From positions 160,754 to 224,753 of the forward strand of contig CAVWLM010000002.1 of the NCBI GenBank assembly GCA_963755905.1: 64,000 nt of DNA, read 5' to 3'. A program made the translations under genes and the position numbers. Source of the stretch: an uncultured delta proteobacterium. Its GTDB lineage: Bacteria > Desulfobacterota > Binatia > Binatales > Binataceae. The notes under the pieces are model-generated. The model did no database searches. It was not told the DNA's origin and saw only the letters and a program-made list of their open reading frames with translations. This document shows, in pieces, positions 7,857-54,313 of this stretch. Numbering within the stretch: position 1 is the first letter of the stretch; each line of letters starts with the position of its first letter.

Positions 7857-7895
7857 TTTAGACCCCTGGATGGAGACGCTACAGGAGGAGCCCGA

Positions 7896-8621: not shown

Positions 8622-9223
8622 GTCCCCGGCTAACGCCCTCGCAAACTATCGGCCCGTTTTTTCATCGCGCGCTGATCCACGAAGGGTGGAACGACCTTGT
8701 CGCCCGCGGCGCGGTTGGCGAGCGCATCGTGATCGAGGGGCGCGTGCTCGACGGCGACGGCGCGCCGGTCACCGACGCAATGATCGAGGTATGGCAGGCG
8801 AACGCCGCGGGCCGTTACGATCATCCCGAAGACCTCGAGCGTGATGAGCCGCGCGAAAATGGACGCCCGCCAAGACCGCTCGATCCCAACTTCCACGGGT
8901 TCGGCCGCATCGCAACCGGTCCGGACGGCCGCTTTCGCCTGCGCACCATCAGGCCGGGGCCGGTGCCGGGCGGCGATGGCGCGCCGCAGGCGCCGCATAT
9001 CAACCTGTCCGTCTTCGCGCGTGGGCTCCTGAAGCGGCTCGTCACGCGGATATATTTTCCCGACGAGCCGCTAAATGGGGCCGATCCGCTGCTGAGCGAG
9101 CTACCTGCCGGTCGCCGGGCTACGCTGATCGCGCGCTTCGCGGAAAGCATCGGGGATGAGCGCACCCTGCATTTCGACATCGTGTTGCAGGGCGGCAACG
9201 AGACCGTGTTTCTCGACGTGTAA
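8618..9223 (+). CDS. pcaG: Protocatechuate 3,4-dioxygenase alpha subunit
   Basis: GRVLDGDGAPVTDAMIEVWQANAAGRY. ATGA overlap with pcaH. Confidence 0.9.
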   Translation: MSPRLTPSQTIGPFFHRALIHEGWNDLVARGAVGERIVIEGRVLDGDGAPVTDAMIEVWQANAAGRYDHPEDLERDEPRENGRPPRPLDPNFHGFGRIATGPDGRFRLRTIRPGPVPGGDGAPQAPHINLSVFARGLLKRLVTRIYFPDEPLNGADPLLSELPAGRRATLIARFAESIGDERTLHFDIVLQGGNETVFLDV

Positions 9224-9256
9224 AACGATGCGCTTGCAGTTTCGCGGGCAGAGCCG

Positions 9257-29835: not shown

Positions 29836-29948
29836 GCTGGAAATCCTGATTCCCGAAGCGCGTCGGCATCCAGGCGCGCAATCATTGGAAGAGGCGAGCG
29901 GAGTCTTTTCGGCCAATCAGTCCTTTATCCGGTCGGAGCGGCTGTCGC

Positions 29949-34247: not shown

Positions 34248-35432
34248 TTGACGTCGAGTTCGATGAGCGGCTACGAATCGGATGTTTTGAAAGTCAGCAA
34301 AGACATTCCGGAGCAATCGACCGGCTGCCATCGGAATTCGGAGCGATATTTCAAGCCCCTGATGTATCTGCTTGCCGCGTTGGCGGCATACGTGAGTGGG
34401 GCCAACATGCATTTGGGCTACGCCTATGCAGCGGATGCACCCGCGCAGGCTGGCCTGACCGTGCCCCAGGTCAATTCGCTACTGACCCCACCCGGTCGGG
34501 ACGGCGAGAAGGTCCCGATCCAGGTCGCGTTGGACGTTATCAATTTGTCCGACATAGATGAGGTCACTCAGCGTTTCAGGGTCGTAGCCTACCTGCTGGC
34601 TAAATGGACGGATCCCCGCCTCGCGTTCACTCCAAAGGCCGCATGGGAGAAATTTCGAGTTTATCACCCTGACGAAGTATGGACGCCGCATTTCGATTTC
34701 GCCAACGGCGTCGTGCCGCACTCCGCGTCTGACGTCACCCTGCGGGTCTTTCCCGATGGGACGGTCAAATATTTCGAACGTTCCAGCGCCGAGCTTTCCA
34801 ATAGTTTTCATCTTCGCCGTTTTCCATTCGATCGGCAGCGCCTGGAAATACTTATTCATCCGCCGCTCAGCGAAGCCGCGCTGGTACATTTCCTCGGCAC
34901 AGCCAATGGACCGTCGATTAGTGTGGAGAGACGAGTCTATTCGTCTCTGGCGGAATGGGCGATCGTAGGAATCCTGGCAAATGCCGAACTAATTCCCGTA
35001 TTCGGCACGGACACCACAAGCCAGATGCGATTCACAATCCAGGTCAAACGAAAGTTCAACTTCTATATATGGAAGGTATTCTTCCCCTTGCTACTCATGG
35101 TGCTCCTTTCGTGGACAGTCTTCTGGATCGACAGCTCGGAGCTAAGCAGTCAGGTTACTATCTCGGTCACGACGGTTCTCACCGTTATCGCCTTCGCATT
35201 TGCGATCTCGACCAACTTGCCGAAGGTTCCATACCTGACCTTTATCGACGTGTTTTTCTTGAGCTGCTACGTGTTTGTCTTTATCACAGCCATCGAACTC
35301 ACCCTGGTACACCTCGCCGGTCGGAGCAAACGCGACAAGATGGGAGAAGCTATTCGGCGCTTCAGCAGGATCGGCTTGCCCGTGCTATTCGTCCTCACCA
35401 ACCTGCTGACGATCGCGGTCTACTTCGGTTAG
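34248..35432 (+). CDS. Pentameric ligand-gated ion channel (prokaryotic Cys-loop receptor family)
   Basis: Extracellular LBD motifs (VINLSDIDEVTQRFRVVAYLLAKWTDPRL) followed by four TM helices. A probable signal peptide starts at M 34362. Confidence 0.75.
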   Translation: MTSSSMSGYESDVLKVSKDIPEQSTGCHRNSERYFKPLMYLLAALAAYVSGANMHLGYAYAADAPAQAGLTVPQVNSLLTPPGRDGEKVPIQVALDVINLSDIDEVTQRFRVVAYLLAKWTDPRLAFTPKAAWEKFRVYHPDEVWTPHFDFANGVVPHSASDVTLRVFPDGTVKYFERSSAELSNSFHLRRFPFDRQRLEILIHPPLSEAALVHFLGTANGPSISVERRVYSSLAEWAIVGILANAELIPVFGTDTTSQMRFTIQVKRKFNFYIWKVFFPLLLMVLLSWTVFWIDSSELSSQVTISVTTVLTVIAFAFAISTNLPKVPYLTFIDVFFLSCYVFVFITAIELTLVHLAGRSKRDKMGEAIRRFSRIGLPVLFVLTNLLTIAVYFG

Positions 35433-35680
35433 TTGCGACGCGCACGGCGCGCTGGCTTCGCGAACAAGGAGGAACGCTATGAGGCCGCGGATCGGCATCA
35501 AAAGACTGACCCGCGCGATCGAAGCTGAGGTGAGAGGAATGAGGTCGTCGGCGTCTCGGGCGAATATTAGTTGAGAGCGATGCACCGTCGTTGCATTACG
35601 CCATACCAAGTGATTGATCAGGGTGGGGATCAAGCCGAAAAGACTTCGCAATGCTCGAACACGTTGGGGGGAGAACGCGT

Positions 35681-36832
35681 ATGCGCCCGTGCATAATCAT
35701 ACCAGGGATTCAGGGTTCCGCACTACAGAATGTGTATCCGCTCTCGCCGCTAACGACCTGGTCTACTTTGACTATCGTCGGGGAAAAGTTCGCAGCGCCT
35801 GATTTCGACAGTCTAGCGCTCGATGACGCTGCGATGGCGGACCGTGATGAGCACGTCGTCAGCCGACCGTCACAATTGCTCGAAATCGCGTACGGACCGC
35901 TGACCCAGGCGCTTCAAGGACGGCTGGACGTGCCGGCGTATCTGTTTCCATATGACTGGCGCTATTCGATCGCGCAGAGCGCGCAGGCGCTGGTTCAATA
36001 TGTCAACCGTTTGAAGTTAAAGTCGATGCCGTCAGTTCAAAAATGGGACGGCCTGTTTGATTTCGCGGTTCACAGCATGGGAGGCCTTGTTCTGAGGGCT
36101 TTTCTGGACGCCTGGCAAAGATCGGGCGCAGCGCCGTTACCCATCGGACAGATCTGTTTTATAGCAACGCCGCATCTCGGCGCGCTCGACGCGGCCGTGG
36201 CGCTGATCAGCGGTGAGACGCCATTGTTCGGCGGCTACAAAGAATTGCGAAAGCTCGCAAGGACTTTCCCCGCAGTATATGAGCTTCTACCTCGTTTTCC
36301 CAATGCGATAGTGCGAGCCGGAGCGCCGATCGATATCTTCGACGTGAAGAACTGGCAAAAGAATACCGTGGATCCTGACGTCGGCAATAGTGGATTCGAC
36401 GTTGAACCGGTTCATCTAATCGCCGCGAAAAGAGTCCTGACAACGCTGCCACTGCCGAGTGACCCGCCGTTCAAGATTCTTCCCGGCGATCAGCTTGTGA
36501 TCTTCGGTAATAAACCCAACGCGGTAATGGTTGAGGTCCAGGTGGGACCGGCCCCGGACTGCTGGTACGACTTCGATGGTGCGACCAAGGGCGCCGGCGA
36601 CGATGTGGTGCCAGTGCAGTCGGCGCGGCTCGCGGGTGTATCGTCGGTGGAGATTCAGGAAGACGATGTTTCTTATTTCCACCCGGTCGAGCGCGGTATG
36701 GCCTCATCCGATATGCACGCGTTTCTTCCTGCGCTCGACGAGGTCGCGACGATCGTCGCGCGATTCTTTCAGGGAGAGCGGGGGCTGGACCTGCTGCCCA
36801 AAGGCCTGCCGAGCTCTAGATTCCATCCCTGA
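35681..36832 (+). CDS. Alpha/beta-hydrolase lipase (LCAT/PGAP1-like)
   Basis: AVHSMGG is a GxSxG nucleophile elbow. Confidence 0.55.
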   Translation: MRPCIIIPGIQGSALQNVYPLSPLTTWSTLTIVGEKFAAPDFDSLALDDAAMADRDEHVVSRPSQLLEIAYGPLTQALQGRLDVPAYLFPYDWRYSIAQSAQALVQYVNRLKLKSMPSVQKWDGLFDFAVHSMGGLVLRAFLDAWQRSGAAPLPIGQICFIATPHLGALDAAVALISGETPLFGGYKELRKLARTFPAVYELLPRFPNAIVRAGAPIDIFDVKNWQKNTVDPDVGNSGFDVEPVHLIAAKRVLTTLPLPSDPPFKILPGDQLVIFGNKPNAVMVEVQVGPAPDCWYDFDGATKGAGDDVVPVQSARLAGVSSVEIQEDDVSYFHPVERGMASSDMHAFLPALDEVATIVARFFQGERGLDLLPKGLPSSRFHP

Positions 36833-39857: not shown

Positions 39858-41390
39858 CTAGTTCGAGACAGCTTTGAATAGTACGGCAAGGTCATGCCGT
39901 ACAATCTTGCCCATTGCATTTTTGGGCAACGAGGAAGTGATCCGAATCACTTTCGGAACTTTGAAGTCGGCCAGGCGTGAGCGGCAGAAGGCTTCGATCT
40001 CGTTCTCGTTGGCGGAGCTTTTGAGTACTACCGCCGCCCATACCTCCTCGCCGTACTTAGTGTCCGAGACTCCAAAGACTGCCGCCTCGGCCACCGCGGG
40101 ATGCTCCAGCAGGACAGCTTCCACTTCCTTTGGTGAAATTTTTTCTCCGCCCCGGTTGATCATCTCCTTGATGCGTCCGGTCAGGCTGAGGTAGCCGGCA
40201 TTATCAAGAACTCCGATGTCGCCGGTGCGAAACCAGCCTTCGACAAAGGCGGCGGCATTAGCTTCGGGATTATCGCGATAGCCGTGCATCACGCTGGGGC
40301 CGCGGATGACCACTTCGCCCGCAGTGTTCGCGGGAAGCTGTTTGCCTGCTTCGTCGATGGTTGCGATCTCGACCCCTGTTGCGAGTCCAACGGTCCCGGA
40401 CTTATGCGGGTGGGGCGGGAGAGGATTGGAGGCCGCCTGATGCGCCGTCTCGGTCATCCCGTATGCTTCCAGCACCGGGGCGCCAAAGCGTTTCTCGAGA
40501 TTCGCAAGAACAACGGGCGCGAGCGCCGCGGAACAGGAGCGGATGAATCGCGGGCCATGATCTGGCGCGCCGTCGCCATCCGCCCGCAACAGAAGCACCT
40601 GATGAATGGTCGGCACTGCCGTAAACCAGGTGGCATGATGCTCGCGGAAAAGCGGCCAGAAACCTGAAGCGGCAAAACGTGGTGGCACGATCAGTGTGCC
40701 TCCCGAAGCCAGCGTGGACAACGCGGCCCCAATCAGCCCGTGGCCGTGAAAGAGCGGCATGACCACCAGGCTGCGATCTTCGGGCTGCAAGGCGTAGTGG
40801 GCGGCAATAGTTGTCGCCGAGCAAGAGACGTTGCGGTGTGTAAGCGGAACGCCTTTTGGCTGCCCCGTAGTACCACTGGTGTACATCAGCAGCGCTACAT
40901 CGTCAGGCTTCGGGGCTTCGGCGTTTAACCGCGAGGAAGCCGCCAGGTTTACCAGCTCCACGACCCCGGTAGGCGCCAGACGTGGCTGCCATACCGGCAG
41001 CGACAGGGCGGCTGCCGCTTCCGCCGCCCCGGAATCACTGTTTTCGGCAACGACCGCTTTGGCTTGTCCGGCGGCAATCAGATAGCGCAATTCGGCACCT
41101 TTGTTTGCCGGGTTTATCGGCGCCGCCACCAGCCGCGCCCGCGTCAGCGCGAGAAAGATGACCAGGAACTCGACGCCGTTCGGCAGTACCATCACGACCA
41201 CATCGCCAGCCTTGAGACCGGCGCCGACGAATTGCGACGCAAGTCTCTCAATCTGATCGGCCAGTGATTTGTAGCTGACGACGAGTCCGGGAGCCGGTGC
41301 TATGATTGCGGCCGCGGAAGACTCGGGTTCCGTCAGCAACTGCTCGAGAGTCGTGCGTAACTCCATACTCGGGTCGGGTTCCTCCTTCAA
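39858..41390 (-). CDS. AMP-dependent synthetase/ligase (acyl-CoA synthetase family)
   Basis: YTSGTTGQPKGV AMP-binding motif. Ends 4 nt downstream of oxc. Confidence 0.8.
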   Translation of the reverse strand: MKEEPDPSMELRTTLEQLLTEPESSAAAIIAPAPGLVVSYKSLADQIERLASQFVGAGLKAGDVVVMVLPNGVEFLVIFLALTRARLVAAPINPANKGAELRYLIAAGQAKAVVAENSDSGAAEAAAALSLPVWQPRLAPTGVVELVNLAASSRLNAEAPKPDDVALLMYTSGTTGQPKGVPLTHRNVSCSATTIAAHYALQPEDRSLVVMPLFHGHGLIGAALSTLASGGTLIVPPRFAASGFWPLFREHHATWFTAVPTIHQVLLLRADGDGAPDHGPRFIRSCSAALAPVVLANLEKRFGAPVLEAYGMTETAHQAASNPLPPHPHKSGTVGLATGVEIATIDEAGKQLPANTAGEVVIRGPSVMHGYRDNPEANAAAFVEGWFRTGDIGVLDNAGYLSLTGRIKEMINRGGEKISPKEVEAVLLEHPAVAEAAVFGVSDTKYGEEVWAAVVLKSSANENEIEAFCRSRLADFKVPKVIRITSSLPKNAMGKIVRHDLAVLFKAVSN

Positions 41391-41394
41391 TTAC

Positions 41395-43107
41395 TCACTT
41401 CTTCGATACGACGCCGCTTTTGGGGTTGAGATTGCCGATATGGCCGCTTTCCGTGCCCACTTTCGGATCGATTACACAATTGATCAGCGCGGGTTTGCCA
41501 GAAGCCAGCGCGTCGGCGAGAGCGTTGGTGAGATTCTGCGGATTATCGACGTAATGACCAATGCCGCCAAAGGCTTCGATGAGTTTTTCGTAGTGCGCCT
41601 GCTTCATCAGGATTGTCGGCGCCGGGTCGCTGTCGCCGCCACGATTGACATCGTCGCCGCGGTAAATCCCGCCATTGTTGAAGACGATAACGACGACCGG
41701 CAGTTGATAGCGGCAAATGGTTTCGATTTCCATGCCGCTAAAGCCAAAGGCGCTGTCGCCCTCGATAGCCACTACTGGCTCACCGCTTACAACCGCTGCC
41801 CCGATCGCGTAGCCCATTCCAATACCCATTACGCCCCATGTCCCACTGTCCAGGCGCTTGCGTGGCAGCCGCATGTCGATGACATTGCGCGCGATGTCGA
41901 GGGTGTTTGCACCCTCGTTGACAAGATAGACCTCCGGCTTGTCGGCAAGCACGCCACGGATGGCGTTAAGAGCGCTGTAGAAGCCCATCGGATGAGGATT
42001 GGCCGCGAGCAGGGTTTTCATGCGCTCCTGGTTGTGCCGTTTGCGCTGCGCAAGTTCCTCCAGCCATTTAGGGTCAGGCTTGATCCGCCCGGGTTTGAGC
42101 ACCGCCAAAAGACTAGCCATGCAGGATGCGATATCTCCCACCACCGGCGCGGCTATGGGACGATTGCTATCCATTTCGGCCGGCATGATATCAATTTGAA
42201 CGAATTGCGCCGCAGATGAGAATTGGGGACTGTTGCCATGATTGAGAAGCCAGTTCAGCCGCGCGCCAATCAGCATCACAAGGTCGGCCTCGGCGAGCGC
42301 GAAAGATCGAGCGGCCGCGGCGGACTGCGAATGATCATCGGCCAGCAATCCCTTGGCCATCGACATCGGAATGAAAGGGATTCCGGTCTTCTCGATAAAC
42401 GAGCGAATGTCCGTGTCCGCCTGGGCATACGCAGCCCCCTTGCCCAGAATGATCAGCGGCCGTTTGGCCTGTCCGAGCAGGTCCAGCGCCCGCTCGATCG
42501 AATCGGACGCCGGGATCTGTCGGGGCGCCGGGTCGATGACGCGCACCAACGACCGCGCAGCGGTCTCGGCGTCGAGGGTCGCGCCTAAGACACTAGCTGG
42601 AAGATCGAGATAGACGCCGCCTGGACGTCCGGAGACCGCGGCACGGATCGCGCGCGCGACACCAATTCCGATGTCCTCGGGCCGATTGATCCGGTATGCA
42701 GCCTTCGCATACGGCTTGGCCGCGTTCATCTGATCGAGCTCTTCATAGTCGCCCTGCTGGAGATCGACGATGGCCCGATCGCTCGACCCACTTATCTGGA
42801 TCATGGGGAAGCTGTTGGTGGTGGCGTTTGCCAGCGCCACCATGCCGTTAAGAAAGCCGGGAGCGGAGACGGTCAGGCAAATACCGGGTTTCTGAGTAAG
42901 GTAGCCGGCGATCGCCGCCGCGTTTCCCGCGGATTGTTCGTGACGAAAGCCGATATAGCGAATGCCCTCGGCCTGAGCCAGCCGGGCCAGGTCCGTTATC
43001 GGGATGCCCGCCACGCCAAAGATCGTATCCAGACCGTTTAGCTTCATGGCCTCGATCACCAGATGGAAGCCATCGGTGATCGAGGGGGAGTTCGTTTCGT
43101 TCGGCAT
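41395..43107 (-). CDS. oxc: Oxalyl-CoA decarboxylase (TPP-dependent)
   Basis: Near-colinear identity blocks with Oxalobacter Oxc: [85 protein letters not shown]. Confidence 0.9.
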   Translation of the reverse strand: [570 protein letters not shown]

Positions 43108-43223
43108 GTGAATCGCCCTCGTGATTATAGGAATTTCGCCGGTATGCGCCGCCAAAGAACTATCCGAGGCCGGTCGCGAGCCCGGCCCGTGCGCGAGACG
43201 GCCGCGGAGGATTTGGTCGGCGC

Positions 43224-44476
43224 TCAGACGACCTTGTCGTTGTGCATCCTGCCGATATCCTCGGTGCTGTATCCCAGATTTCTCAGCACCTCGTCCGTAT
43301 GCTCGCCCAGCAGCGGGGCGCCAGTGATCTCCGGTTTAAAGCTGGAAAACTTGATGGGGCTGCCGACCGTCAGATAGTTGCCGCGTTCCTCCTGCTGCAC
43401 CTCAACCACCGTACCGCTCGCGCGCAGGGCAGGATCGTTGTCGATTTCCTTCATCGATAGGACGGGCCGCACGGCACGCCGAACTTACGCAGGATGCTCG
43501 ACCGCTTCAAACTTGGTCTTGTCGGCGAGCAACTTTTCGATCTCGGCGAAAATCTCGAAGATGTGGGGCTGCCGCGCGCGAGGCAGTAGCGTAGGCGGGA
43601 TCGTTCGCCCATTGCGGCTTGCCTATCGCCTCGCAGGTCGGCCCCCAATTCTGTTCCTGAATCGTGAAATAGATGTAGGCGTTCGGATCCGTTTCCCAGC
43701 CCTTGCATTTGAGTATCCAGCCTGGCTGTCCGCCGCCGCCGGCGTTCCCGCCGCGCGGTACCACGTCGGTAAATTTCCCGTTCGGATACTGCGGATACTC
43801 TTCGAGGTAGCCGACGTGGTCCAAACGTTCCTGATCGCGCAACTTGACGCGGCACAGATTCAGCACCGCGTCCTGCATCGACACGGAGACTTTCTGGCCT
43901 TTGCCGGTCTTTTCGCGGCCGATCAGCGCGGTCAGGATGCCGATCGCCAGATGCATTCCGGTGTTGCTATCGCCAAGCGCCGCCGCGCTGACCGTCGGCG
44001 GGCCGTCCCAGAATCCAGTGGTCGAGGCGGCGCCGCCGGCGCACTGCGCCACGTTTTCGTAAACCTTGAGGTCCGCGTAAGGCGAGCCCTCGCTGAAGCC
44101 CTTGATCGAGCCGAAAATGATCCGTGGGTTGAGTTCCTGAATACGTTCCCAGGTGAAGCCCATCCGGTCCATCGCACCGGGCGCGAAATTCTCGACCAGG
44201 ACGTCGGCCTCGCGAATAAGCTTCTCCATGATCGCCTTGCCTTCCGCGGTCTTGGTATTCAGGGTCAGCGACTTCTTGTTGCTGTTGAGCATCGATGAAG
44301 TACAGCGCATCCAAATTGGGGACGTCCCGCAGTTGGCGGCGCGTAACATCTCCGACACCGGGCCGTTCGACTTTCAGCACTTCGGCGCCGAACCACGCCA
44401 ACAGTTGCGTACATGCCGGCCCGGCCTGCACGCCCGTGAAGTCAATCACTTTGATTCCCGCCAATGGCAGCGCCAT
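43224..44476 (-). pseudogene. frc: Formyl-CoA:oxalate CoA-transferase, interrupted by two single-nucleotide frameshifts
   Basis: Three consecutive ORFs in different frames are colinear with Frc: [41 protein letters not shown]...[24 protein letters not shown], and [25 protein letters not shown]. The shifts map near 44297 (+1) and 43485 (-1). Confidence 0.7.
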
Positions 44477-44713
44477 GCTCGAATGCTCCTCGCAACGTGC
44501 GAAATGGAAGTACAACCCTTCGGGCCGCTGGCCCGCTGATCCTGTCAGCCCTACGTTGCGCCTTGTTGGTCAGTCAATAGTGAGTTGTACCGACAGTAGG
44601 TGCATAAAAATTGCATGAATCTGTCTGGCACGCTAGAAGCGAAGTCGGCGGGCTATCGTGGTTCCAGGCAACTTTAAGATGGGGACGCCCAGCAGAACCA
44701 TGGCTGCCGAGGA

Positions 44714-45388
44714 TTGACGACGATGCCGCGCCCTGAGTTTTTCGGAAAGCTAGGTCTGTTCGTCGTCAGCGAGTTCCTGGATCTCGCGACTTGCGGGCGG
44801 CTCCGATCGGAGATACTCGAGGCCGCTTCGCGCAAAGGGAAAATTCTCGCAAAGACGCGCGAGTTCGAGGTTGACGACTCTATTCGCCGAGTGTTGTGCT
44901 CGGACGTTCCGAAGTCCACGGAGATCCTTGTCGAAGCACGGCTGGCACAACTGAAGCCGCAACTGGAAGAGCATTTTCAAACGTCATTGACCGGTTGCGA
45001 CGGTCCTTATTTTTTTAGGTATGGACCGGAGGACTTCTACAAACCGCATCGCGACGTCGTGCCCGATTCTCCCGCCGAGGTCGAAAACCGGCGAGTCTCA
45101 GTGATCGTCTTCCTGAACGCACAAGGCGAGGATTCGTCCGCCGAAGACTGCTATGGCGGAGGCGCTTTGACTTTCTACGGTCTGATCCAGGGCGCCCAGT
45201 GGGAGAACTGTGGGTTCCCGCTCGAGGCCACGCCCGGCCTGTTGGTCGCATTTCGTCCAGGCATTCTTCACGAGGTCAGCCCAGTCGCCTACGGTCAACG
45301 GTTCACGATCGCGGCGTGGTTCACCGGCGGATCGTCCGCGGAATTTCCGCGGAATCTTCCGCCGCCGGTCCACACGGCTCCGAATTGA
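44714..45388 (+). CDS. 2OG-Fe(II) oxygenase (prolyl 4-hydroxylase-like)
   Basis: HRD...VSVIVFLN...H spacing typical of P4Hc-type dioxygenases. Confidence 0.7.
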   Translation: MTTMPRPEFFGKLGLFVVSEFLDLATCGRLRSEILEAASRKGKILAKTREFEVDDSIRRVLCSDVPKSTEILVEARLAQLKPQLEEHFQTSLTGCDGPYFFRYGPEDFYKPHRDVVPDSPAEVENRRVSVIVFLNAQGEDSSAEDCYGGGALTFYGLIQGAQWENCGFPLEATPGLLVAFRPGILHEVSPVAYGQRFTIAAWFTGGSSAEFPRNLPPPVHTAPN

Positions 45389-45527
45389 AAGTCCGTGCCC
45401 AGGTCCGCAAGCGCAGCAATCGAGCCGTGAAGGGTAAGGCTAAAACGCCGAGACAGCGAAAGCGACAATGACCCGCCCGACGACCTGTACTCGGACGTCG
45501 AACAAATAGGAATTCAGGACTGGAAAT

Positions 45528-48401
45528 TCAGGCGCCGAGTGGGAAGTTGCCGGCCGTGTGTATCGGACGCTGCCGCCCACTGTCGGTGGCTGTGCTTGGG
45601 TAAGGATCGATGGAACCCTGCGTCACGCGCAGGCGCTCACGGAGTTTGTCGGCGAGCCCGCGCACGTAAGGCTCGCGGAACATCGGCTGGCCGTGAAATC
45701 CCTCGACGTCGACGATTTCGAGGCCGCCGGCTGCGAGCTCACCCCATCCGAGCAATGGATCGGTCTCGTAGATCTCGCTAGACGGTTGCGCGGGCACTCG
45801 GAACAATGTGATCGGGCGCGGATAGGGGAGCGGATGATAGTGTCGCTTGGCCGCGAAAGCCACGTTAAGAAACGACAGGTACAGGCTTTCCTGCGAAACT
45901 GGACGCCCGGCTAGTCTGCGCCAGCAAGTATCCATTCGCCGCGCCCAAATCCTGAACATCTCGCGACGCATCTCGGACCATCGACGATCCGGCGGCTGTG
46001 GAAAAGGGTTGCCGAGGCGGCGAAACAGACGAAATCGCGCGGGCGCTTCGCGGCGGAGCCTCGGATATCCGGGTGCGCGCGTATCGAATAGAGCCAGCAG
46101 GCCAACTTCCTGTCCAGCTCGCACCAATTGTTGCGCGATCTCGAACGCCACGATACCTCCGTACGAGGATCCGCCGAGAAAATACGGTCCGCGAGGCTGT
46201 AGCGCTCGCATCTCTCGCACGAAGTACGCGGCGAGCGAATCCACCGTGCGTAGCGGCGGATGCTGGCCGTCCTGTCCCGGCGGCTGCAAGCCATAAAAAG
46301 GCTGATCGAGCCCCAGATGACGCGGCAGTTCGGAGAGCGAGAGCACGTCGGTGCCGGCGCCCGCCGCGCAAAAGAACCCGGGCCGGTCGCCGTGCGGTTG
46401 CAGTGCCACAATCGCTGGCCACGCCGGCGACCAACTCGCGTCGCGCAGGACCTCGGCCTGTCGCGCCACGTTCGGAGCCTCGAGCAATAGCGAAATCGGC
46501 AGCCGGCGTCCGCAGACGCTTTCGATCCTGCCGACCAACTCCAGAGCGAGAATCGAGTCTCCCCCGAGCTCGAAGAAGTCGTCGCGGACGCCGACCGGCT
46601 GAAGCTTGAGCACGTCTTCCCATATCGCCGCCAGGCATAACTCGAGGCGGTCGCGCGGCGGATGCGCGCCGGAACGCGCCGGCTCCGGATTGGGCAGCGC
46701 GTCGCGGTCGACCTTTCCATTGGATGTGAGCGGTAGAGAATCGACGCACACGAACACCGAAGGGACCATCGAGGCTGGGAGCGTGCGCCCAAGCTGGCCG
46801 CGCAGCGCCGCGGGCGAGGCCGAGCCCACCACGTAGGCCACCAGACGAGTTTCCCCCCAACGGTCGGGCCGGCCTACTACCGCGGCCTCGCGAATTTCGG
46901 GATTCGTCAGCAGCGCCGCTTCGACCTCGGCGGTCTCGACTGATTGACCGCGGACCTTCACCATCGATTCGCGCCGGCCCAGATGGACTAGACATCCGTC
47001 GGGCAGGATCATTCCGCGGTCGCCTGTGCGGAACATCCGCCTCCCGTCGGGACAGGTCGAGAGCGCGGCGGCAGTGAGTTCGGGATTGTGCCAATACCCG
47101 CAGAAAAGATAGTCGCTCCTGATCGCGAGGTCGCCCGCGCGGCCATCTGTCAGCTCGCGGCCTTCTTCGTCCAGCACGACGATTTCCGTATCCGCCAATT
47201 CATAGCCGACCGGAATTACCGATCCGTCGAACGTGGAAGCCTCGTCGATGAAGAACATTCGGATGCTGTTCATTTCAGTGGCGCCGAGGCTCGCGCACAA
47301 AATGCTCGTCCTGGGCAGATGTCGGCGGAAAAGCTCGACATCTCTGAGCGTGGTCGCCTCGCCGCCCAGCTTGACCAGGCGCAGAGACGGCATCGACGCA
47401 TCTTCCGGCAGCGAAGCCACGAGGCGCCTGAATACCGTCGGCACCGAATGGTAGAGCGTAATTTCTTCGCTTGCGATCCAGGAGCCCAGGTCGGCGAATC
47501 CCCGCGCACGCAGATCGAAAGGATGCAACGAGGCGCCGTTCAGCAGCGCGCCGAAGATATCCGACACCGAGGCCCCGACCTCGTACACAGGCAGCAGGGC
47601 ATGACGGTCGGTGGCGTCGAGGTGCACGCCGTTGGTGTACTTCATAATGTTGTGCAGGACGTTGCGATGACTCTGCACGACACCCTTGGGTTTCCCCGTG
47701 GATCCCGAGGTGTAGAGGATGTACGCGATCGCGCCGGGCGAAATTGGCAGGCCGAGGTTTTCTGTGGAGAGCCGGTTTCCGATTCCGTCGATTGAAATGA
47801 TCGTGATAGGGCCGGCCTCTTCCGGAGGAATTCCGGTCGATTCGTGCGCAATCTCCCGCGCTGTCGCGGCGTTGAGATCGTTGGTGAGGATCGTTTCGGC
47901 GCCGCAATCCTTCAGGATAGCGGCGAGCCGTGCGGCCGGATGGGCCGAGCTCATCGGGACGTAGCATCGCCCGGCCTTGAGCACACCGAGCATCGCGGCT
48001 ATCTCCGGCGCTCCGTGTTCGAACAGGAGCGCGACAGGGGTGCCGTTTGACGATCGCGCATCTGATAGCAAGGCGCGGCCGATACAATTCGCCCGGGCGT
48101 TCAGCTCGCCGTAGCTCCATTCATGTGCGCTGTCGCGAATTGCCAGTGCGCCCGCCCGCCGCGCCACCTGGTCCTCGAAGCGGGCGGCGATCGATTGCTC
48201 GACCGCGCTCCGGTCGAAAGGCGTGAACGCATTGCACGGCCCTGGGCATCGACGCGCATGTGCGCGCGAAGGGTCGGCTGTGGCTCGCAAGGAATCGGCA
48301 GTGGCTTCGGATGAATCGAGCATGTTTGGCGAAGCAGGGCCGCGAAGATTGGCCTTCGCTTGCAGTAAAATAGCCGTTTCCCTTAGCAGTGCAAGCGACA
48401 A
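45528..48401 (-). CDS. Single-module non-ribosomal peptide synthetase (A-PCP-TE)
   Basis: Adenylation core motifs (YTSGSTGKPKGV), PCP motif DDFFELGGDSILAL, C-terminal thioesterase GGSSYGG. Confidence 0.8.
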   Translation of the reverse strand: MSLALLRETAILLQAKANLRGPASPNMLDSSEATADSLRATADPSRAHARRCPGPCNAFTPFDRSAVEQSIAARFEDQVARRAGALAIRDSAHEWSYGELNARANCIGRALLSDARSSNGTPVALLFEHGAPEIAAMLGVLKAGRCYVPMSSAHPAARLAAILKDCGAETILTNDLNAATAREIAHESTGIPPEEAGPITIISIDGIGNRLSTENLGLPISPGAIAYILYTSGSTGKPKGVVQSHRNVLHNIMKYTNGVHLDATDRHALLPVYEVGASVSDIFGALLNGASLHPFDLRARGFADLGSWIASEEITLYHSVPTVFRRLVASLPEDASMPSLRLVKLGGEATTLRDVELFRRHLPRTSILCASLGATEMNSIRMFFIDEASTFDGSVIPVGYELADTEIVVLDEEGRELTDGRAGDLAIRSDYLFCGYWHNPELTAAALSTCPDGRRMFRTGDRGMILPDGCLVHLGRRESMVKVRGQSVETAEVEAALLTNPEIREAAVVGRPDRWGETRLVAYVVGSASPAALRGQLGRTLPASMVPSVFVCVDSLPLTSNGKVDRDALPNPEPARSGAHPPRDRLELCLAAIWEDVLKLQPVGVRDDFFELGGDSILALELVGRIESVCGRRLPISLLLEAPNVARQAEVLRDASWSPAWPAIVALQPHGDRPGFFCAAGAGTDVLSLSELPRHLGLDQPFYGLQPPGQDGQHPPLRTVDSLAAYFVREMRALQPRGPYFLGGSSYGGIVAFEIAQQLVRAGQEVGLLALFDTRAPGYPRLRREAPARFRLFRRLGNPFPQPPDRRWSEMRREMFRIWARRMDTCWRRLAGRPVSQESLYLSFLNVAFAAKRHYHPLPYPRPITLFRVPAQPSSEIYETDPLLGWGELAAGGLEIVDVEGFHGQPMFREPYVRGLADKLRERLRVTQGSIDPYPSTATDSGRQRPIHTAGNFPLGA

Positions 48402-48502
48402 TTCGCCGCCGGCTCACCGGTCGCGGATGAGAAGGCGAAATGCTAATATCGGTGGGTTCGAGCTTAGGCCAATCAGGTTGGCGAAAAGGACCAAAAGGTT
48501 AA

Positions 48503-49621
48503 GTGCGTAAACAGATCACCCCCATTACGACTCCCACGACGGCGGTGCGGCCAAGCGGTTGTATCTTTTTGGCAGCGGCGCTGATCGCCTCCACCACGGC
48601 CCTGGCCGCTTTTGTGCTCGCGCTTACGCTCCCGGCGCGTGCCGCCGCGGCAACCGACTCGGGTCCGATTCTCGCGGAAATCGGCAATCACAAGATCACT
48701 CAGCAGGAAGTCGATGCCAAGATAAAACTCGAGCTATATGACGCCCGCAAAGCGGCGGTCGACGAGCTGGTGGACGACTACCTGCTCCAGCAGGCCGCCA
48801 AGAAGGAAAAGCTGAGCGTTGCCGATTACGTCAAGCGCGAAGTCGACGACAAAGCGGCGGCCGACGTTGACGACGCGACAGCCAAGAAGTTTTACGATGA
48901 CAACAAGGACAAGATTCCGGCCCTCAAAGAGGCCGGGTCATACGACAAGATCAAGGATCGCCTGATCGCGGCGCTGCGCCAGCGCGACGCCCAGCAGCAA
49001 CACGAGCAGCTTCTTGCCCGGTTGCGCAAGGACGCCGGCGCCAAGATCCTGCTCACTCCGCCACGGATCGCCGTCAACCTCGGCGCCGCCAGCCATCCCA
49101 CGCTCGGTCCCAAGGATGCTCCGGTAACGATGATCGAGTTCGCCGACTTCCAATGCCCGTTCTGCAAGCGTTCCGAGGACGCGGTCAGGGCCGTACATGA
49201 CAAGTACGGCGATCGCGTGCGCCTGGTGTTCATGGATTTTCCGCTGAGCTTCCATCCGCATGCGATGCCTGCGGCCAACGCCGCGCGTTGCGCCGCCGCG
49301 CAGGACAAGTTCTGGCAGTATCATGACGCGCTGTTCGCCGATCAGTCCAAGCTTGAGCCCGCCGATCTGAAGGCGACCGCTAAGACGCTCGGACTCGACA
49401 CCGCCAAGTTCGACGCCTGCTTCGACAAGAACCAGTACAGCCAGGCGATCCAGAAGGACGTGGATGAGGGCCGCAAGTTGAACGTGACCGGCACGCCGAC
49501 TTTCTTCATCGACGGGCGCGAGATCGTCGGGGCCGAGCCGACCGAGAATTTCGAAAGTGTGATTGATCAGGAACTCGCAAAGAACGGCGACCACAACAAG
49601 AAAACCGCCGCCGCCGAGTAA
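48503..49621 (+). CDS. DsbA-family thiol:disulfide oxidoreductase with N-terminal chaperone-like domain
   Basis: Signal/anchor N-terminus. FADFQCPFCKR is a CxxC thioredoxin-fold active site. Confidence 0.75.
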   Translation: MRKQITPITTPTTAVRPSGCIFLAAALIASTTALAAFVLALTLPARAAAATDSGPILAEIGNHKITQQEVDAKIKLELYDARKAAVDELVDDYLLQQAAKKEKLSVADYVKREVDDKAAADVDDATAKKFYDDNKDKIPALKEAGSYDKIKDRLIAALRQRDAQQQHEQLLARLRKDAGAKILLTPPRIAVNLGAASHPTLGPKDAPVTMIEFADFQCPFCKRSEDAVRAVHDKYGDRVRLVFMDFPLSFHPHAMPAANAARCAAAQDKFWQYHDALFADQSKLEPADLKATAKTLGLDTAKFDACFDKNQYSQAIQKDVDEGRKLNVTGTPTFFIDGREIVGAEPTENFESVIDQELAKNGDHNKKTAAAE

Positions 49622-49667
49622 AAGGTGGACTGACCGTAGCATCCTGCTCTGACGACAGGAGCCTGGA

Positions 49668-49700
49668 CCGCCGGCCGTACCTCGGCCGGCGGTTTTTGTT
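49668..49700. terminator. Bidirectional rho-independent terminator between convergent genes
   Basis: CCGCCGGCCG-tacctc-GGCCGGCGG followed by TTTTTGTTT. Confidence 0.5.
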
Positions 49701-49725
49701 TGGACTTGAAGCGCGAAGGTCGATT

Positions 49726-51036
49726 TCAATACGGATAGAACACGAAGAATAACGTTGACAGGATATTCAGCGCCCACAAACCGGGCCGGATATCGCGACC
49801 TCGTCCCGCCGCGACCTTGAACCACGGATACAGGACGAAGCCGGCCGTTACGCCGACCCCGATGTTATAGGTGAAGCTCATCAGCGCGATTATCGCGAAG
49901 GCCGGCATCAGTTCGGTGTAGTCGTCGAAATCGATCTTCCTGATGGGCGCGATCATCATCGCACCAACGATGACCAGCGCCGGGCCGTAGGCCTGCGGTG
50001 GAATTGCCGTTACTGTCGGCGCGAAGAATAGCGACACACCGAACAGCGCCGCCGTTACTACTGCAGTCATCCCGGTACGCCCGCCGACGCTCACGCCGGC
50101 CGCCGACTCGACGTATGCGCCGGCGGTGGTTGTGCCGACCAGGGCCGCGAACGTGGTCGCAAGGGCGTCGGCCATCATCGGCCGCTCGATCTGCGGCAGA
50201 TGGCCGTGCTCGTCGAGCAGGCCGGCGCGCTCCGAGACGCCCACCAGCGTGCCCAGCGTATCCACCAGCGCCATCACGAAGATCGTCAGCAGCACGCCGA
50301 AGAAGCCCCAGCCGAACGCCGCTCTGAAATCGAGCTTGAACAGAATCGGGGCGGGGCTGGGCGGCGCGCTAACCCATCGATGGGGCATGCTCGCGACGCC
50401 GAACGCGAACGCCGCGGCCGAGGCCATGAGGATTCCAATCAGGATCGCGCCGGGCACGCGCCACAGCGTAAGCATCGCGATAGCGACGAAGCCGAAGATT
50501 GCCACCATAGCCGGCGCCGAGTTGAGCGCCCCGATCCTGACCGGGGCGCCGGCGATTCCGAGCGTCACGATACCCGCCTCGTTGAGCCCAATGAAGGCGA
50601 GGAACAGCCCGATGCCCGCCGCGAAGCTGAAGCGCAGTCCCGGCGGCACCGCCTCCATCATCCATTGCCGCACGCGCGCGGCCGTCAGCAGCGTGAACAG
50701 GACTCCCGCGATGAACACCGCGCCCAGCGCGGTTTGCCACCGAAAGCCAAGCACACGCACCACCGTAAAAGCGACGAAGGCGTTTTCGCCCATGTACGGC
50801 GCGATCGCGAACGGCCGGTTGGCGTAAAGTCCCATCACCAGCGTGCCGAACATTGCGGTCATGACGGTCGCGACCATCGAAGGGCCCTCCGGGATGCCCG
50901 CCGCCTTCAAAATCGCCGGGTTGACCGCGACGATGTATGCCATCGTGACAAAGGTGGTGACGCCGCCCAGGACCTCGCGGCGCAGATTGGTGCCGGCGCG
51001 CTCGAAGCCGAAGAACGCGGCGAGTCTATGCTCCAT
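49726..51036 (-). CDS. NCS2-family purine permease (AzgA-like guanine/hypoxanthine permease)
   Basis: 12-TM protein. REVLGGVTTFVTMAYIVAVNPAIL is the AzgA-like N-terminus. Start taken at MEHRL (51036). Confidence 0.8.
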   Translation of the reverse strand: MEHRLAAFFGFERAGTNLRREVLGGVTTFVTMAYIVAVNPAILKAAGIPEGPSMVATVMTAMFGTLVMGLYANRPFAIAPYMGENAFVAFTVVRVLGFRWQTALGAVFIAGVLFTLLTAARVRQWMMEAVPPGLRFSFAAGIGLFLAFIGLNEAGIVTLGIAGAPVRIGALNSAPAMVAIFGFVAIAMLTLWRVPGAILIGILMASAAAFAFGVASMPHRWVSAPPSPAPILFKLDFRAAFGWGFFGVLLTIFVMALVDTLGTLVGVSERAGLLDEHGHLPQIERPMMADALATTFAALVGTTTAGAYVESAAGVSVGGRTGMTAVVTAALFGVSLFFAPTVTAIPPQAYGPALVIVGAMMIAPIRKIDFDDYTELMPAFAIIALMSFTYNIGVGVTAGFVLYPWFKVAAGRGRDIRPGLWALNILSTLFFVFYPY

Positions 51037-51172
51037 CGATGGCGACCCTTCCTCGCGCGTCGGCGGCCTGCCGTGCCGGGCGCGCTCGTATAGATATCCG
51101 GCGCGGCGCATACGCATCAACGCTGGCAGCAAGTCAGGGATGGTGCGAAAATCGCGTACTGGAGAAATCCTG

Positions 51173-52006
51173 ATGGAGAATCCCAAGCCGGTAGCCAAGC
51201 CCTCAAACCCCACCCGTGTCGCCGTGAAGAAAGCGCCGCGCACGCTCTGCGTCGACGTTGGCGGCACTGGTATCAAGGCCCAGTTGCTCGACGAACGCGG
51301 CCATCCGTTGACCGATCGCGCGCGTACCCTGACGCCACCACATGCGACGCCGCGTCAGGTGGTCGCCATCATCCGTAAGCTGGCCAAGGGCGCGGGCGAG
51401 TTCGATCGGGTCTCAGTGGGCTTTCCGGGCGTCACCAAGAATGGCCTCATCTATACCGCGGCCAATCTGGGAAAGGGTTGGAACAATTTTCCACTCGAGC
51501 AAAAGCTCAGGCACGTGCTCGGACGCCCCGTCCGCGTCGCCAACGATGCCGACGTGCAGGGATTGGGCTCGGTCTCCGGTCACGGTGTCGAACTGCTCAT
51601 TACGCTCGGGACCGGCGTGGGATCCGTGATTTTCGTCAACGGCAACCGCATCCACCTGGAACTGGGGCATCATCCTTTCCACAAGGGCAGAACGTACGAG
51701 GACGAGCTGGGCCATCGAATGTTGGTCAAGAAGGGCAAGAAGTGGTGGAACAAACGGTTGCGCGAGGCGATCGAGGATCTGCAGATCGCGTTCAATTACG
51801 ATCGGCTTTTCATCGGGGGCGGCGACAGCAAGTTCATTCGCTTTGAGCCGCCCGAGGGCGTGAAGATCGTCGGCAACGAGGAGGGACTGCTCGGCGGAAT
51901 CAAGCTGTGGCAGGACGTGGATGCGAAACGGACTCCCGCGGCGGGCCCGGAAGAGCCGAGGCTTGTCAAGAATAGCCGCAAGCGACCCATCGAGGGAAAA
52001 GCATAA
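51173..52006 (+). CDS. ppgK: Polyphosphate glucokinase (ROK family)
   Basis: LCVDVGGTGIKAQLLD, ITLGTGVGSVIFVNG and LFIGGGDSKF are colinear with PPGK. Start taken at MENPKP; the ORF-track entry 50843 is a 5' over-extension. Confidence 0.75.
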   Translation: MENPKPVAKPSNPTRVAVKKAPRTLCVDVGGTGIKAQLLDERGHPLTDRARTLTPPHATPRQVVAIIRKLAKGAGEFDRVSVGFPGVTKNGLIYTAANLGKGWNNFPLEQKLRHVLGRPVRVANDADVQGLGSVSGHGVELLITLGTGVGSVIFVNGNRIHLELGHHPFHKGRTYEDELGHRMLVKKGKKWWNKRLREAIEDLQIAFNYDRLFIGGGDSKFIRFEPPEGVKIVGNEEGLLGGIKLWQDVDAKRTPAAGPEEPRLVKNSRKRPIEGKA

Positions 52007-52563: not shown

Positions 52564-53772
52564 ATGGTAACGGGTTTACGGCGGCGACTATTTAGACTGG
52601 CCCCATTGTTTCTCCTGCTGAGCGGGCCCGCTTTCGCTCAGGTCCCCAGCACCCCGACTCTTCAGTTTCCATACACCCAGCCTCCCGCCGAGGGCGTTGG
52701 CGTCAGCAAGATGCCCGCGCCTAATCCGCACTGGGTGATAGTCAACGCTCCGCTTTACGGCAATTTCATCGTATCGCAGGTTTACGTGATCGACGGCGAT
52801 TCGAGAAAAATTCTCGGCATGCTGACGACCGGAATGATCGCGACGGTGGCCCTGTCGCCCGACCATAGCCGCATTTTCACCGGCGACACGTTTTTCTCGC
52901 GTGGTACGCGCGGCAGCCGCACCGACGTCATAACCGTTTACGACACCTCCAACCTCGAGCCGGTGGGTGAGATCGTAATTCCCCCGAAACGTCAGCTTGC
53001 TGCCCCCGACAATTTGCAGCTCAGCGCAACCTCCGACGGACACCTGTTGCTGGTCGCCAATATGACGCCTGCGACCTCGGTGACCGTGATCGATATCGCG
53101 TCGTCCAAGGTGCTAGGCGAGATCCCGATAACCGGATGCGCGGAATTTCAGCTTACCGGCAACCGGCAATTCGCCTCACTGTGCGGCGACGGATCGCTCA
53201 TGGTGACGAACTTCGACGACACGGGTAAATTGCTCACTCAAAAGCGCAGCCCCGTGTTCTTCGAACCCGAGAAGGACCCGGTCTACGGCGCGCCGGCGAT
53301 TATCAAGAGCGAGAACTACTACGTGACCTATCACGGAGTTGTGCATCCGGTTGACCTCTCGACCGATCCGCCGACTCCGGGCACGACGTGGTCCTTGACT
53401 ACCGACCAGGAGCGAGAGGCGGGATGGAGACCGGGCGGCAGCCAGCCAATCTGGGGACATGCCTCGGACGGTCTCCTCTATGCCCTGATGCATCAGGGCG
53501 GCGAGTGGACGCATAAGCAGGCCGGTAACGAGATCTGGGTTTTCAACGCGAAGGACGGCAAGCGAACCGAGCGCCTGTCGCTTCCCGAACCGGCGGCCGC
53601 GATTTTCGTAACGCCTGATGACAAGCCGCTGATTTTCGCCGCGACGCCCACCGACGTCCTGCAAATGGGAGCGCCGCCGTGGTCGCTCCAGATATTGTCG
53701 GCGGAAAGCGGCAGGTACCTGGGCAAAGTCGACCAGTTGGGAGGTATCCCGTCCAACATGTTCGGCCTGTAA
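52564..53772 (+). CDS. TTQ-dependent amine dehydrogenase heavy (large, beta-propeller) subunit
   Basis: Signal peptide, then blocks colinear with MauB (EAGWRPGGSQPIWGH, GEWTHKQAGNEIWVFNAKDGKRT). Confidence 0.75.
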   Translation: MVTGLRRRLFRLAPLFLLLSGPAFAQVPSTPTLQFPYTQPPAEGVGVSKMPAPNPHWVIVNAPLYGNFIVSQVYVIDGDSRKILGMLTTGMIATVALSPDHSRIFTGDTFFSRGTRGSRTDVITVYDTSNLEPVGEIVIPPKRQLAAPDNLQLSATSDGHLLLVANMTPATSVTVIDIASSKVLGEIPITGCAEFQLTGNRQFASLCGDGSLMVTNFDDTGKLLTQKRSPVFFEPEKDPVYGAPAIIKSENYYVTYHGVVHPVDLSTDPPTPGTTWSLTTDQEREAGWRPGGSQPIWGHASDGLLYALMHQGGEWTHKQAGNEIWVFNAKDGKRTERLSLPEPAAAIFVTPDDKPLIFAATPTDVLQMGAPPWSLQILSAESGRYLGKVDQLGGIPSNMFGL

Positions 53773-53803
53773 TGGACGGTGTGTAATTTGAGGAGAATCG
53801 AGA

Positions 53804-54313
53804 ATGGATGACCTGGTAGAACGACTGGCGCGCAAGCTTGCGGCGCATACCTCCCGCCGGCGGCTGCTGGGGATGCTCGGAACGGCCTTGCTGGGCGGGG
53901 TGGCGCTGCCGCTGCTGCCCGTGCATCGCATCGCGAGCGCGGCCGAAGCGGCGGACTCGGCTGGCGAGCCTGGCGATCAAATGAGCTGCGACTACTGGCG
54001 GTATTGCGGTTTCGACGGGAATCTTTGCGGATGCTGCGGTGGAACTCTCACCGAATGCCCGGCGGGATCGATCATGTCGCCCACGGGATGGGTCGGCACC
54101 TGCCGGCATCCGGTCGATGGCAAAGATTACATCATCGCGTACCGCGATTGCTGCGGAAAGGAATATTGCGGCCGCTGTGCCTGTCACGGAGATAAGGGCG
54201 ATTTGCCGATCTATCGCACGCAACTCGATAATGAAGTGCTCTGGTGCTTCGGCGTCAAGAGTGGATGGGCGGTGAATTGCACCACGGCGGTCAACCTGGG
54301 CGTCAAGTCGTAA
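53804..54313 (+). CDS. mauA: TTQ-dependent amine dehydrogenase light (small) subunit
   Basis: Tat signal (SRRRLLGML). CDYWRYCGFDGNLCGCCGG...YIIAYRDCCGKEYCGRCAC is near-identical to the MauA TTQ/Cys core. Confidence 0.85.
   Translation: MDDLVERLARKLAAHTSRRRLLGMLGTALLGGVALPLLPVHRIASAAEAADSAGEPGDQMSCDYWRYCGFDGNLCGCCGGTLTECPAGSIMSPTGWVGTCRHPVDGKDYIIAYRDCCGKEYCGRCACHGDKGDLPIYRTQLDNEVLWCFGVKSGWAVNCTTAVNLGVKS

Follow-up and report, generated by a model that had tools for sequence, protein, structure and literature searches.

A stand-alone nonribosomal peptide synthetase-like gene of an uncultured Binataceae bacterium with a predicted non-amino-acid substrate

Introduction

Genome-mining tools flag many nonribosomal peptide synthetase (NRPS)-like genes that encode an adenylation (A), a peptidyl carrier protein (PCP) and a thioesterase (TE) domain, and such genes are often read as amino-acid-derived chemistry. 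One of them is located in a stretch of 64,000 nucleotides (the window) from an uncultured delta proteobacterium (GTDB lineage Desulfobacterota, Binatia, Binatales, Binataceae; assembly GCA_963755905.1, contig CAVWLM010000002.1, positions 160,754 to 224,753), where it lies between the genes of a 2-oxoglutarate (2OG)-Fe(II) oxygenase and of a DsbA-like protein. The locus raises the question of what kind of acid is activated by this single module and whether its neighbors take part in the formation of the product. A first-pass annotation had proposed an amino-acid-derived small molecule, such as an aminoacyl ester, lactone or dipeptide, with the prolyl 4-hydroxylase (P4H)-like oxygenase as hydroxylating partner. 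The sequence comparison presented here favors, with moderate confidence, a self-contained NRPS-like enzyme which would activate a non-amino carboxylic acid and release it by its own TE, the oxygenase being a chance neighbor.

Domain composition of the NRPS-like protein

The NRPS-like gene and its domains are arranged as follows:

45528-48323, minus strand: NRPS-like gene, 931 amino acids, domain order A-PCP-TE (Pfam and NCBIfam matches; open reading frame (ORF) 45528-48401, 957 codons)
46713-48179, minus strand: A domain, residues 49-537 (AMP-binding PF00501, E 2.8e-62; AMP-binding_C PF13193, E 4.8e-15)
46449-46634, minus strand: PCP domain, residues 564-625 (PP-binding PF00550, E 5.5e-14)
45624-46373, minus strand: TE domain, residues ~651-900 (Thioesterase PF00975, E 1.7e-20)

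The start codon is most likely the ATG at 48323, since the orthologues align from this methionine and share its MLDS/MIDS N-terminus; the TTG at 48401 is a mere ORF boundary. A condensation (C) domain (PF00668) is missing from the protein in the Pfam scan, and no condensation, ketosynthase, further carrier or other NRPS or polyketide synthase (PKS) domain was found by Pfam in the window ORFs of at least 250 amino acids. The earlier description as a single A-PCP-TE module without C domain, encoded by the sole NRPS/PKS gene of the window, is thereby borne out. The only other AMP-binding protein in the window is a FadD7-like acyl-CoA ligase (39858-41390, minus strand). Since the A-PCP-TE protein stands alone, without a C domain and without another NRPS or PKS in the window, its activity must be that of a minimal NRPS-like unit.

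Adenylation domain and specificity code

The specificity code of the A domain, obtained by MAFFT and BLAST mapping together with the conserved motifs, reads G-A-S-H-K-G-S-S-I-K. It is formed by G250, A251, S254, H292, K318, G320, S345, S353, I354 and K537, equivalent to positions 235, 236, 239, 278, 299, 301, 322, 330, 331 and 517 of GrsA, whose numbering is used for the pocket in the following. Gly250 (codon at 47574-47576) occupies the Asp235 column in two independent HMMER alignments (YEVGASVSD versus SFSFDGSALD and YIFDISVAE of the two LgrA A domains). The equivalent of Lys517 is present as Lys537 in SNGKVDR. The first-pass annotation had named a missing core Asp or Lys as evidence against its own proposal; the Lys is kept, while the Asp is replaced by Gly.

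Control codes were derived by the same mapping from multimodular NRPSs found in the same searches, namely DILQLGLIWK (Gly), DVQF[IV]A[QH]VVK (Pro-like), DAFWLGGTFK (Val-like), DLTKIGHVGK (Asp/Asn-like) and VDWVVSLADK (beta-Ala-like), and the GrsA and Val codes were also compared with the table in PMC11355689. Since these controls are textbook or near-textbook codes, the column mapping is considered sound. With LgrA and with GrsA PheA, the NRPS-like protein reaches 454 and 227 bits, respectively. Its score with the model for amino acid adenylation domains, TIGR01733, is 298.4 bits and lies under the curated cutoff of 317.4.

Asp235 binds the alpha-amine of the substrate, and an aliphatic residue is found instead in keto-acid-activating domains (PMC11355689, PMC10949194, PMC4558948). 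Among 88 stand-alone homologues of 780-960 amino acids, Asp235 is present in a single protein and absent in 87. The remaining pocket is better conserved, with His278 found in 71, Lys or Arg299 in 67 and Lys517 in all 88 of them. Code position 1 is taken by G, S, A, M, L, T, N or D in these homologues and never by Val; the orthologues have Ala or Ser at this position versus Gly in the window protein. Due to the Gly at position 235 and the absence of Asp235 in 87 of the 88 homologues, an alpha-amino acid is an unlikely substrate, which speaks against the amino-acid-derived product proposed earlier. All A-domain motifs read in the translation are intact (A3, YTSGSTGKPKG; A7, FRTGD; A8, GRRESMVKVRG; A10, NGKVDR), so that the domain should adenylate something, albeit probably not an alpha-amino acid.

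Carrier and thioesterase domains and proposed reaction

The phosphopantetheine-attachment site of the PCP, Ser590 in GGDSI (codon at 46554-46556), is invariant in 90 of 90 family sequences. The catalytic triad of the TE, a type-I thioesterase, consists of Ser720 (GGSSYGG), Asp747 (LFDTRAP) and His877 (GFHGQ). At the corresponding positions of the 90 family sequences, the nucleophile is Ser in 61 and Cys in 26, the Asp is present in 78 and the His in 80. The alignment of the TE with that of AB3403 (4zxh; 71 bits) extends over the full length of the domain, and the lid of the window TE, measured from the Asp to the His, comprises 122 residues, 20 of which are Arg.

In the proposed reaction, the A domain would adenylate a carboxylic acid lacking an alpha-amino group, as suggested by the Gly in place of the amine-binding Asp235. 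A polar, basic pocket would be formed by the conserved His278 and Lys299 and by Ser239, Ser322 and Ser330; it might accommodate acids with a distal anionic or hydrogen-bonding group, whether 2-oxo, 2-hydroxy or other. The acyl group would be transferred to the phosphopantetheine on Ser590, introduced by a phosphopantetheinyl transferase encoded elsewhere, then passed to Ser720 of the TE, which would either hydrolyze it off or hand it to an external nucleophile.

Relatives of the NRPS-like protein

A 100%-identical protein (P0001) is encoded on a 1.76 Mb ENA contig. Homologues bearing a name are annotated as Candidatus Binataceae, and the orthologous loci stem from metagenome-assembled genomes labelled "uncultured delta proteobacterium". 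Six independent orthologous loci with approximately 79-82% amino acid identity were available (L001/L007, L002/L009, L008, L087, L171 and L172), and a ratio of nonsynonymous to synonymous substitution rates (dN/dS) of 0.20-0.23 was calculated against four of the ~80%-identical orthologues. With this sign of purifying selection and the catalytic motifs intact, the gene appears to encode a functional-looking, self-contained enzyme.

Together with stand-alone A-PCP-TE proteins from Binatota, Acidobacteriota, Nostocales, Verrucomicrobiota and Gemmatimonadota, the window protein forms a broad family without a name. The closest relatives outside the family are canonical termination modules of the type C-A-T-TE (T, thiolation domain) with the code DAMHVGGVxK and 40-47% identity, a proximity which suggests that the stand-alone family derives from such modules. 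Clustering of the neighboring genes over 85 loci did not reveal a family-wide partner, since most of the fetched loci were multimodular NRPSs with Asp235 codes.

A sister clade with 53% identity (L003, 8001-13653; L006, 8001-14067) has the code [GA]APHRG..[IV]K, and its A-PCP-TE gene is followed downstream by genes for an APH-family kinase, a 150-amino-acid protein and an Amidohydro_2 protein. The homologue from Cylindrospermum (L004) is followed by two Ser/Thr-kinase genes (Pkinase). An association of A-PCP-TE and kinase genes was considered as a family feature and rejected, because beyond L003, L006 and L004 it recurred only in one weak case on the opposite strand.

A subgroup with an aldehyde dehydrogenase partner

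Four loci (L005, L018, L019 and L021) form a subgroup with the code GASHKGG[SV]IK, one or two positions off the window code. Directly upstream of the A-PCP-TE gene, all four encode a fusion of an isochorismatase and an aldehyde dehydrogenase (ALDH):

L005, 6142-8004: isochorismatase-ALDH fusion gene
L021, 7770-9932: isochorismatase-ALDH fusion gene
L019, 7854-9965: isochorismatase-ALDH fusion gene
L018, 2-607: isochorismatase-ALDH fusion gene

The fusion gene overlaps the start of the A-PCP-TE gene in L005 and L021. Between these two loci, the A-PCP-TE proteins are 41% and the fusion proteins 49% identical, and the pairing is still kept. The best NCBIfam models of the ALDH halves, albeit with scores far under the cutoffs, are those of dicarboxylate-semialdehyde dehydrogenases (2-oxoglutarate semialdehyde, 2,5-dioxovalerate and succinylglutamate semialdehyde). 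This pairing fits a substrate acid made by aldehyde oxidation. L005 additionally harbors genes for a LeuB-like beta-decarboxylating dehydrogenase, a Wzt-type ABC ATPase, methyltransferases and a UbiA prenyltransferase; LeuB-like beta-decarboxylating dehydrogenases are an enzyme type yielding 2-oxo acids. Taking together the basic His278/Lys299 pocket, the ALDH partner and the LeuB-like gene, the best guess for the substrate would be an anionic non-amino acid, possibly, and with low confidence, a 2-oxo-dicarboxylate.

Comparison with characterized enzymes

The characterized non-reducing A-T-TE enzymes, with RalA and EchA as bacterial members, dimerize aromatic 2-oxo acids and have Val at code position 1 (PMC9047271, PMC10316625). 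RalA and EchA as well as the fungal AtrA, TdiA and polyporic acid synthetases are likewise A-T-TE proteins without C domain and have lost Asp235 as the window protein has, and this shared loss implies a substrate other than an amino acid. In contrast to the Val of the RalA/EchA type, code position 1 of the window protein is Gly, and its pocket, with His278 and Lys299, is polar and basic. It is 25% identical (135 bits) to an A-T-TE ORF of 937 amino acids on the Ralstonia GMI1000 megaplasmid (L170:13455-16268). We infer that this ORF is RalA, as the ralfuranone region (published as RSp1419-1434 of GMI1000, PMC4989320) contains no other A-T-TE ORF. The window protein thus appears to share the RalA-type architecture and the loss of Asp235, yet it is not filed here as a member of this group.

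Asp235 is also lost, in favor of a small or aliphatic residue, in the 2-oxo-acid-activating A domains of depsipeptide synthetases (StsA, HctE/F, CesA, Vlm; PMC10949194, PMC4558948). These domains are part of multimodular lines with an embedded ketoreductase and downstream C domains, whereas the window enzyme stands alone with a TE; their other code positions are similar to those for the corresponding amino acid, while the window code matches none of the amino-acid codes with which it was compared. The A-PCP-TE protein of shinorine biosynthesis (Ava_3855 type) is a stand-alone bacterial enzyme like the window protein and passes a single activated unit on to a small acceptor molecule (PMC4558948). 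However, it is proposed to activate serine and is encoded in a mycosporine cluster, in contrast to the window protein, which lacks both Asp235 and such a cluster.

Among solved structures, the best match which also covers the TE is the termination module AB3403 of Acinetobacter baumannii (4ZXH/4ZXI; 325 bits for the whole protein). Both TEs have the GGxxxGG, DTRAP and GxH motifs at matching positions, but AB3403 carries an N-terminal C domain and a Cys opposite the nucleophilic Ser of the window protein, and its product is not known (PMC10510592). Carboxylic acid reductases and related A-PCP-R (R, reductase domain) enzymes are stand-alone proteins as well, which adenylate a non-amino acid and load it onto a carrier (PMC10510592); they release it by an NADPH-dependent reductase instead of the hydrolase-fold thioesterase found here. 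A literature search for a characterized bacterial family with this architecture and code returned only RalA/EchA, the shinorine enzyme and unannotated orphans.

Neighboring genes

The genes adjoining the NRPS-like gene and the associated terminator-like site are:

44723-45388, plus strand: 2OG-Fe(II) oxygenase gene (PF13640, 2OG-FeII_Oxy_3, E 5.5e-13; ORF 44714-45388)
48503-49621, plus strand: gene of an exported DsbA-like protein (Thioredoxin_4 PF13462, E 2e-33; DSBA PF01323, E 1.3e-22)
49665-49695: terminator-like site with a 13-bp stem, 3' of dsbA (terminator scan)

The Pfam E-values of the three genes exclude chance matches. All three were confirmed by Pfam at the coordinates given in the first-pass annotation, whose span of 44714-49621 runs from the start of the oxygenase ORF to the stop codon of dsbA. 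The oxygenase probably starts at the ATG at 44723. It had been described as divergently placed, but it is convergent with the NRPS-like gene (tail to tail, 139-bp spacer), and dsbA is the divergent gene (179-bp spacer). With dsbA divergent upstream and the oxygenase gene convergent downstream, the NRPS-like gene is monocistronic. A promoter scan of 44500-49800 did not find a sigma-70-like site, and terminator-like sites in the same interval were no commoner than in shuffled sequences, except for the strong one 3' of dsbA. When 43000-51500 was scanned with Rfam for a riboswitch indicative of a ligand, only a chance miRNA match (E 0.38) was returned.

The oxygenase is a P4H/YbiX-like protein (PF13640) with intact Fe(II)- and 2OG-binding residues (His109-x-Asp111, His183 and Arg193), and its relatives are small stand-alone proteins annotated as "YbiX/SM-20-related". 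The synteny of both genes in relatives had been suggested as a check. In a tblastn search (E < 1e-3, within 6-10 kb of the NRPS-like gene), no oxygenase homologue was found in any of the six ~80%-identical loci, and none was found in the other fetched loci except L100. The latter is a 1.9-kb fragment with 97.4% DNA identity, hence from the same species, and the only other locus in which the two genes adjoin. In the ENA assembly ERZ25039540, an 82%-identical oxygenase is encoded among genes of acyl-CoA metabolism on contig_7000, which is larger than 1 Mb, while the NRPS-like orthologue is located on contig_11165; a 71%-identical oxygenase orthologue has no NRPS gene nearby. In L167, the oxygenase orthologue (6992-7622) is frameshifted, by a long-read assembly error or by decay.

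Instead of an oxygenase, a cupin (L001), a DDE transposase (L002) or a hypothetical protein of 195 amino acids (L008, L171 and L172) is encoded 3' of the NRPS-like orthologues. In L087, this flank (5113-10465) comprises the genes of an unknown protein of 253 amino acids, of a second DsbA-like paralogue, of a pyridine-nucleotide-disulfide oxidoreductase of class I and of an integrase of the phage type. The transposase in L002 and the integrase in L087 mark the 3' flank as an insertion hotspot. Since the oxygenase is missing from the loci of the relatives, has its orthologues elsewhere and is convergently oriented, a partnership with the NRPS-like enzyme is not supported, and the role as a substrate-hydroxylating partner assigned to it earlier is given up here. 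On the basis of these comparisons, the oxygenase gene is judged a species-specific chance neighbor at a variable junction.

The DsbA-like protein, a thiol:disulfide oxidoreductase by its thioredoxin-type Pfam matches and CxxC site, contains an N-terminal hydrophobic anchor, a SurA_N-like segment and the active-site motif CPFC at residue 218; its export signal was assessed only by visual inspection. All six related loci keep the divergent dsbA, the DsbA proteins being 83-89% identical, and the second paralogue in L087 is 48% identical to the first. The whole flank on this side, including genes for a permease, a ROK protein and an amine dehydrogenase, is collinear in the close relatives. No divergent dsbA was found in the 53%-identity clade (L003, L006) or in more distant members. 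A collinear flank in ~80%-identical relatives can be explained by common ancestry alone, so that the adjacency would reflect conserved gene order in a narrow clade, a functional link being unproven. Homologues of the heavy and light chains of methylamine dehydrogenase, a tryptophan tryptophylquinone-type amine dehydrogenase, are encoded at 52564-54313 (plus strand), collinear with dsbA in L001 and L002. An exported, disulfide-rich amine dehydrogenase light chain might be a more natural client of DsbA than a cytoplasmic NRPS-like protein.

Further genes in the window

On the other side of the oxygenase, a group of genes related to oxalate catabolism is found:

39858-44515, minus strand: oxalate-catabolism group, consisting of the acyl-CoA ligase (39858-41390), an oxalyl-CoA decarboxylase (41395-43155; 996 bits) and a family III CoA-transferase

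Two overlapping ORFs in different frames share the CoA-transferase between them (43967-44515, profile positions 1-48; 43507-44358, positions 56-273 of 366), and the C-terminal remainder was not recovered, which indicates either a pseudogene or a frameshift error of long-read sequencing. These oxalate genes were considered as a source of the substrate and rejected, as they are absent beside the orthologues in all six related loci.

The genes of an NTP_transf_5 nucleotidyltransferase, of an ABC exporter and of a radical SAM enzyme with B12-binding domain adjoin one another at 26666-31370, resembling a neighborhood of the type seen for ribosomally synthesized and post-translationally modified peptides. 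In L172, an NTP_transf_5 and ABC pair is located up to ~2 kb downstream of the NRPS-like orthologue, which indicates a rearrangement between the two regions. A homologue of prokaryotic pentameric ligand-gated ion channels (Neur_chan_LBD and Neur_chan_memb) is encoded at 34248-35432 (plus strand), adjoined by the gene of an LCAT-like acyltransferase at 35651-36832.

Discussion

The A-PCP-TE architecture by itself would be compatible with the activation of an alpha-amino acid, followed by formation of an aminoacyl ester, lactone or dipeptide by the TE and by hydroxylation of the substrate or product by the P4H-like oxygenase. Serine activation has been proposed for the cyanobacterial shinorine A-PCP-TE (PMC4558948), the HxD...H...R motif of the oxygenase is intact, and both genes adjoin in the window and in the 97%-identical L100. 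Nevertheless, this explanation is very unlikely in view of the Gly at position 235, with Asp missing in 87 of 88 homologues, and of an oxygenase gene which is convergent and not co-transcribed, is absent from the six ~80%-identical loci and other fetched loci, and has its 82% orthologue on another contig of ERZ25039540 and a 71% orthologue without an NRPS nearby. Rather unlikely is a counterpart of RalA, EchA, AtrA and TdiA, in which two aromatic 2-oxo acids would be loaded and condensed by the TE to a terphenylquinone or furanone. The architecture and the loss of Asp235 are the same, all characterized non-reducing NRPS-like enzymes work in this way (PMC9047271), and a polar residue at code position 5, here Lys, tracks with para-hydroxylated substrates in that group (PMC10316625). 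However, position 1 is Gly, or Ala/Ser in the orthologues, instead of the family-marking Val (PMC10316625), the pocket is polar and basic and not aromatic-friendly, the identity to the presumed RalA is 25% (135 bits) compared to 40-47% for the C-A-T-TE modules, and the scanned ORFs of the window did not contain an aminotransferase domain.

A functional pair of the DsbA-like and the NRPS-like protein, e.g. for a thiol- or disulfide-containing metabolite, would account for the divergent arrangement kept in six related loci with DsbA proteins 83-89% identical, and for the second DsbA paralogue and the disulfide oxidoreductase that follow the NRPS-like gene on the same strand in L087. Since these relatives are close (~80% amino acid identity) with a collinear flank, the arrangement is lost at 53% identity, and DsbA is exported, while the NRPS-like protein has no export signal, such a pair is regarded as unlikely. 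Action in trans with an NRPS or PKS encoded elsewhere, for instance as a loading or off-loading unit of a distant condensation enzyme, appears quite unlikely. Stand-alone A-PCP proteins often serve NRPS or PKS partners in trans, and as the 64-kb window contains no partner, it may be located elsewhere; yet a pure loading unit would not usually carry a TE of its own, as this protein does, and no C-domain gene is present within ~45 kb on one side and 15 kb on the other or in the gene calls of the orthologous loci. A decaying relic without current function, as the damaged L171 and L172 orthologues and the 3' flank as a rearrangement hotspot (transposase in L002, integrase in L087) might indicate, is hardly credible for a gene with 931 uninterrupted codons, all catalytic motifs intact and a dN/dS of 0.20-0.23, all the more so as other split genes in the same long-read assemblies point to sequencing errors.

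The preferred explanation, a self-contained enzyme which activates a non-amino acid, has several points against it. The code matches none of the characterized specificities with which it was compared, so that the substrate class is deduced only from the lost Asp235 and the polarity of the pocket, and the example of HcaB shows that the status of Asp235 is no absolute predictor of keto-acid use (PMC10949194). Hydrolysis, transfer and dimerization by the TE are not told apart by the results. The NCBIfam scores of the ALDH halves in the related subgroup are far under the cutoffs, and the isochorismatase-ALDH fusion gene is missing from the 64-kb window. Finally, the orthologue in L171 (4831-6924) lacks residues ~70-296, an internal gap of ~225 residues, and that in L172 (2030-4797) is frameshifted near residue 650. 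This damage may stem from long-read assembly errors, which are plausible because other genes are split in these assemblies too, or may be a sign that the gene is dispensable.

With respect to the window gene, an ordinary orphan NRPS-like gene of an uncharacterized family, without a cluster, the immediate value of these results is modest. Here, a look at one residue, Asp235, and a simple synteny test were sufficient to overturn the earlier ideas on the substrate and on the tailoring partner. By its pocket signature, a widespread family without a name is delimited, which occurs in phyla nearly untouched experimentally (e.g. Binatota and Acidobacteriota), and one subgroup with a conserved aldehyde dehydrogenase partner offers a start for the substrate search. 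As a more tentative extension, to which a minor but real chance may be given, the clade with a lost Asp235, His278 together with Lys/Arg299 and an Arg-rich TE lid might activate anionic non-amino acids, e.g. 2-oxo- or other dicarboxylates, for which a translationally coupled isochorismatase-ALDH fusion would be the source in some lineages, and transfer them to an acceptor. If this is true, the chemistry of the clade would differ from peptide synthesis as well as from the aryl-pyruvate dimerization of the known A-T-TE enzymes.

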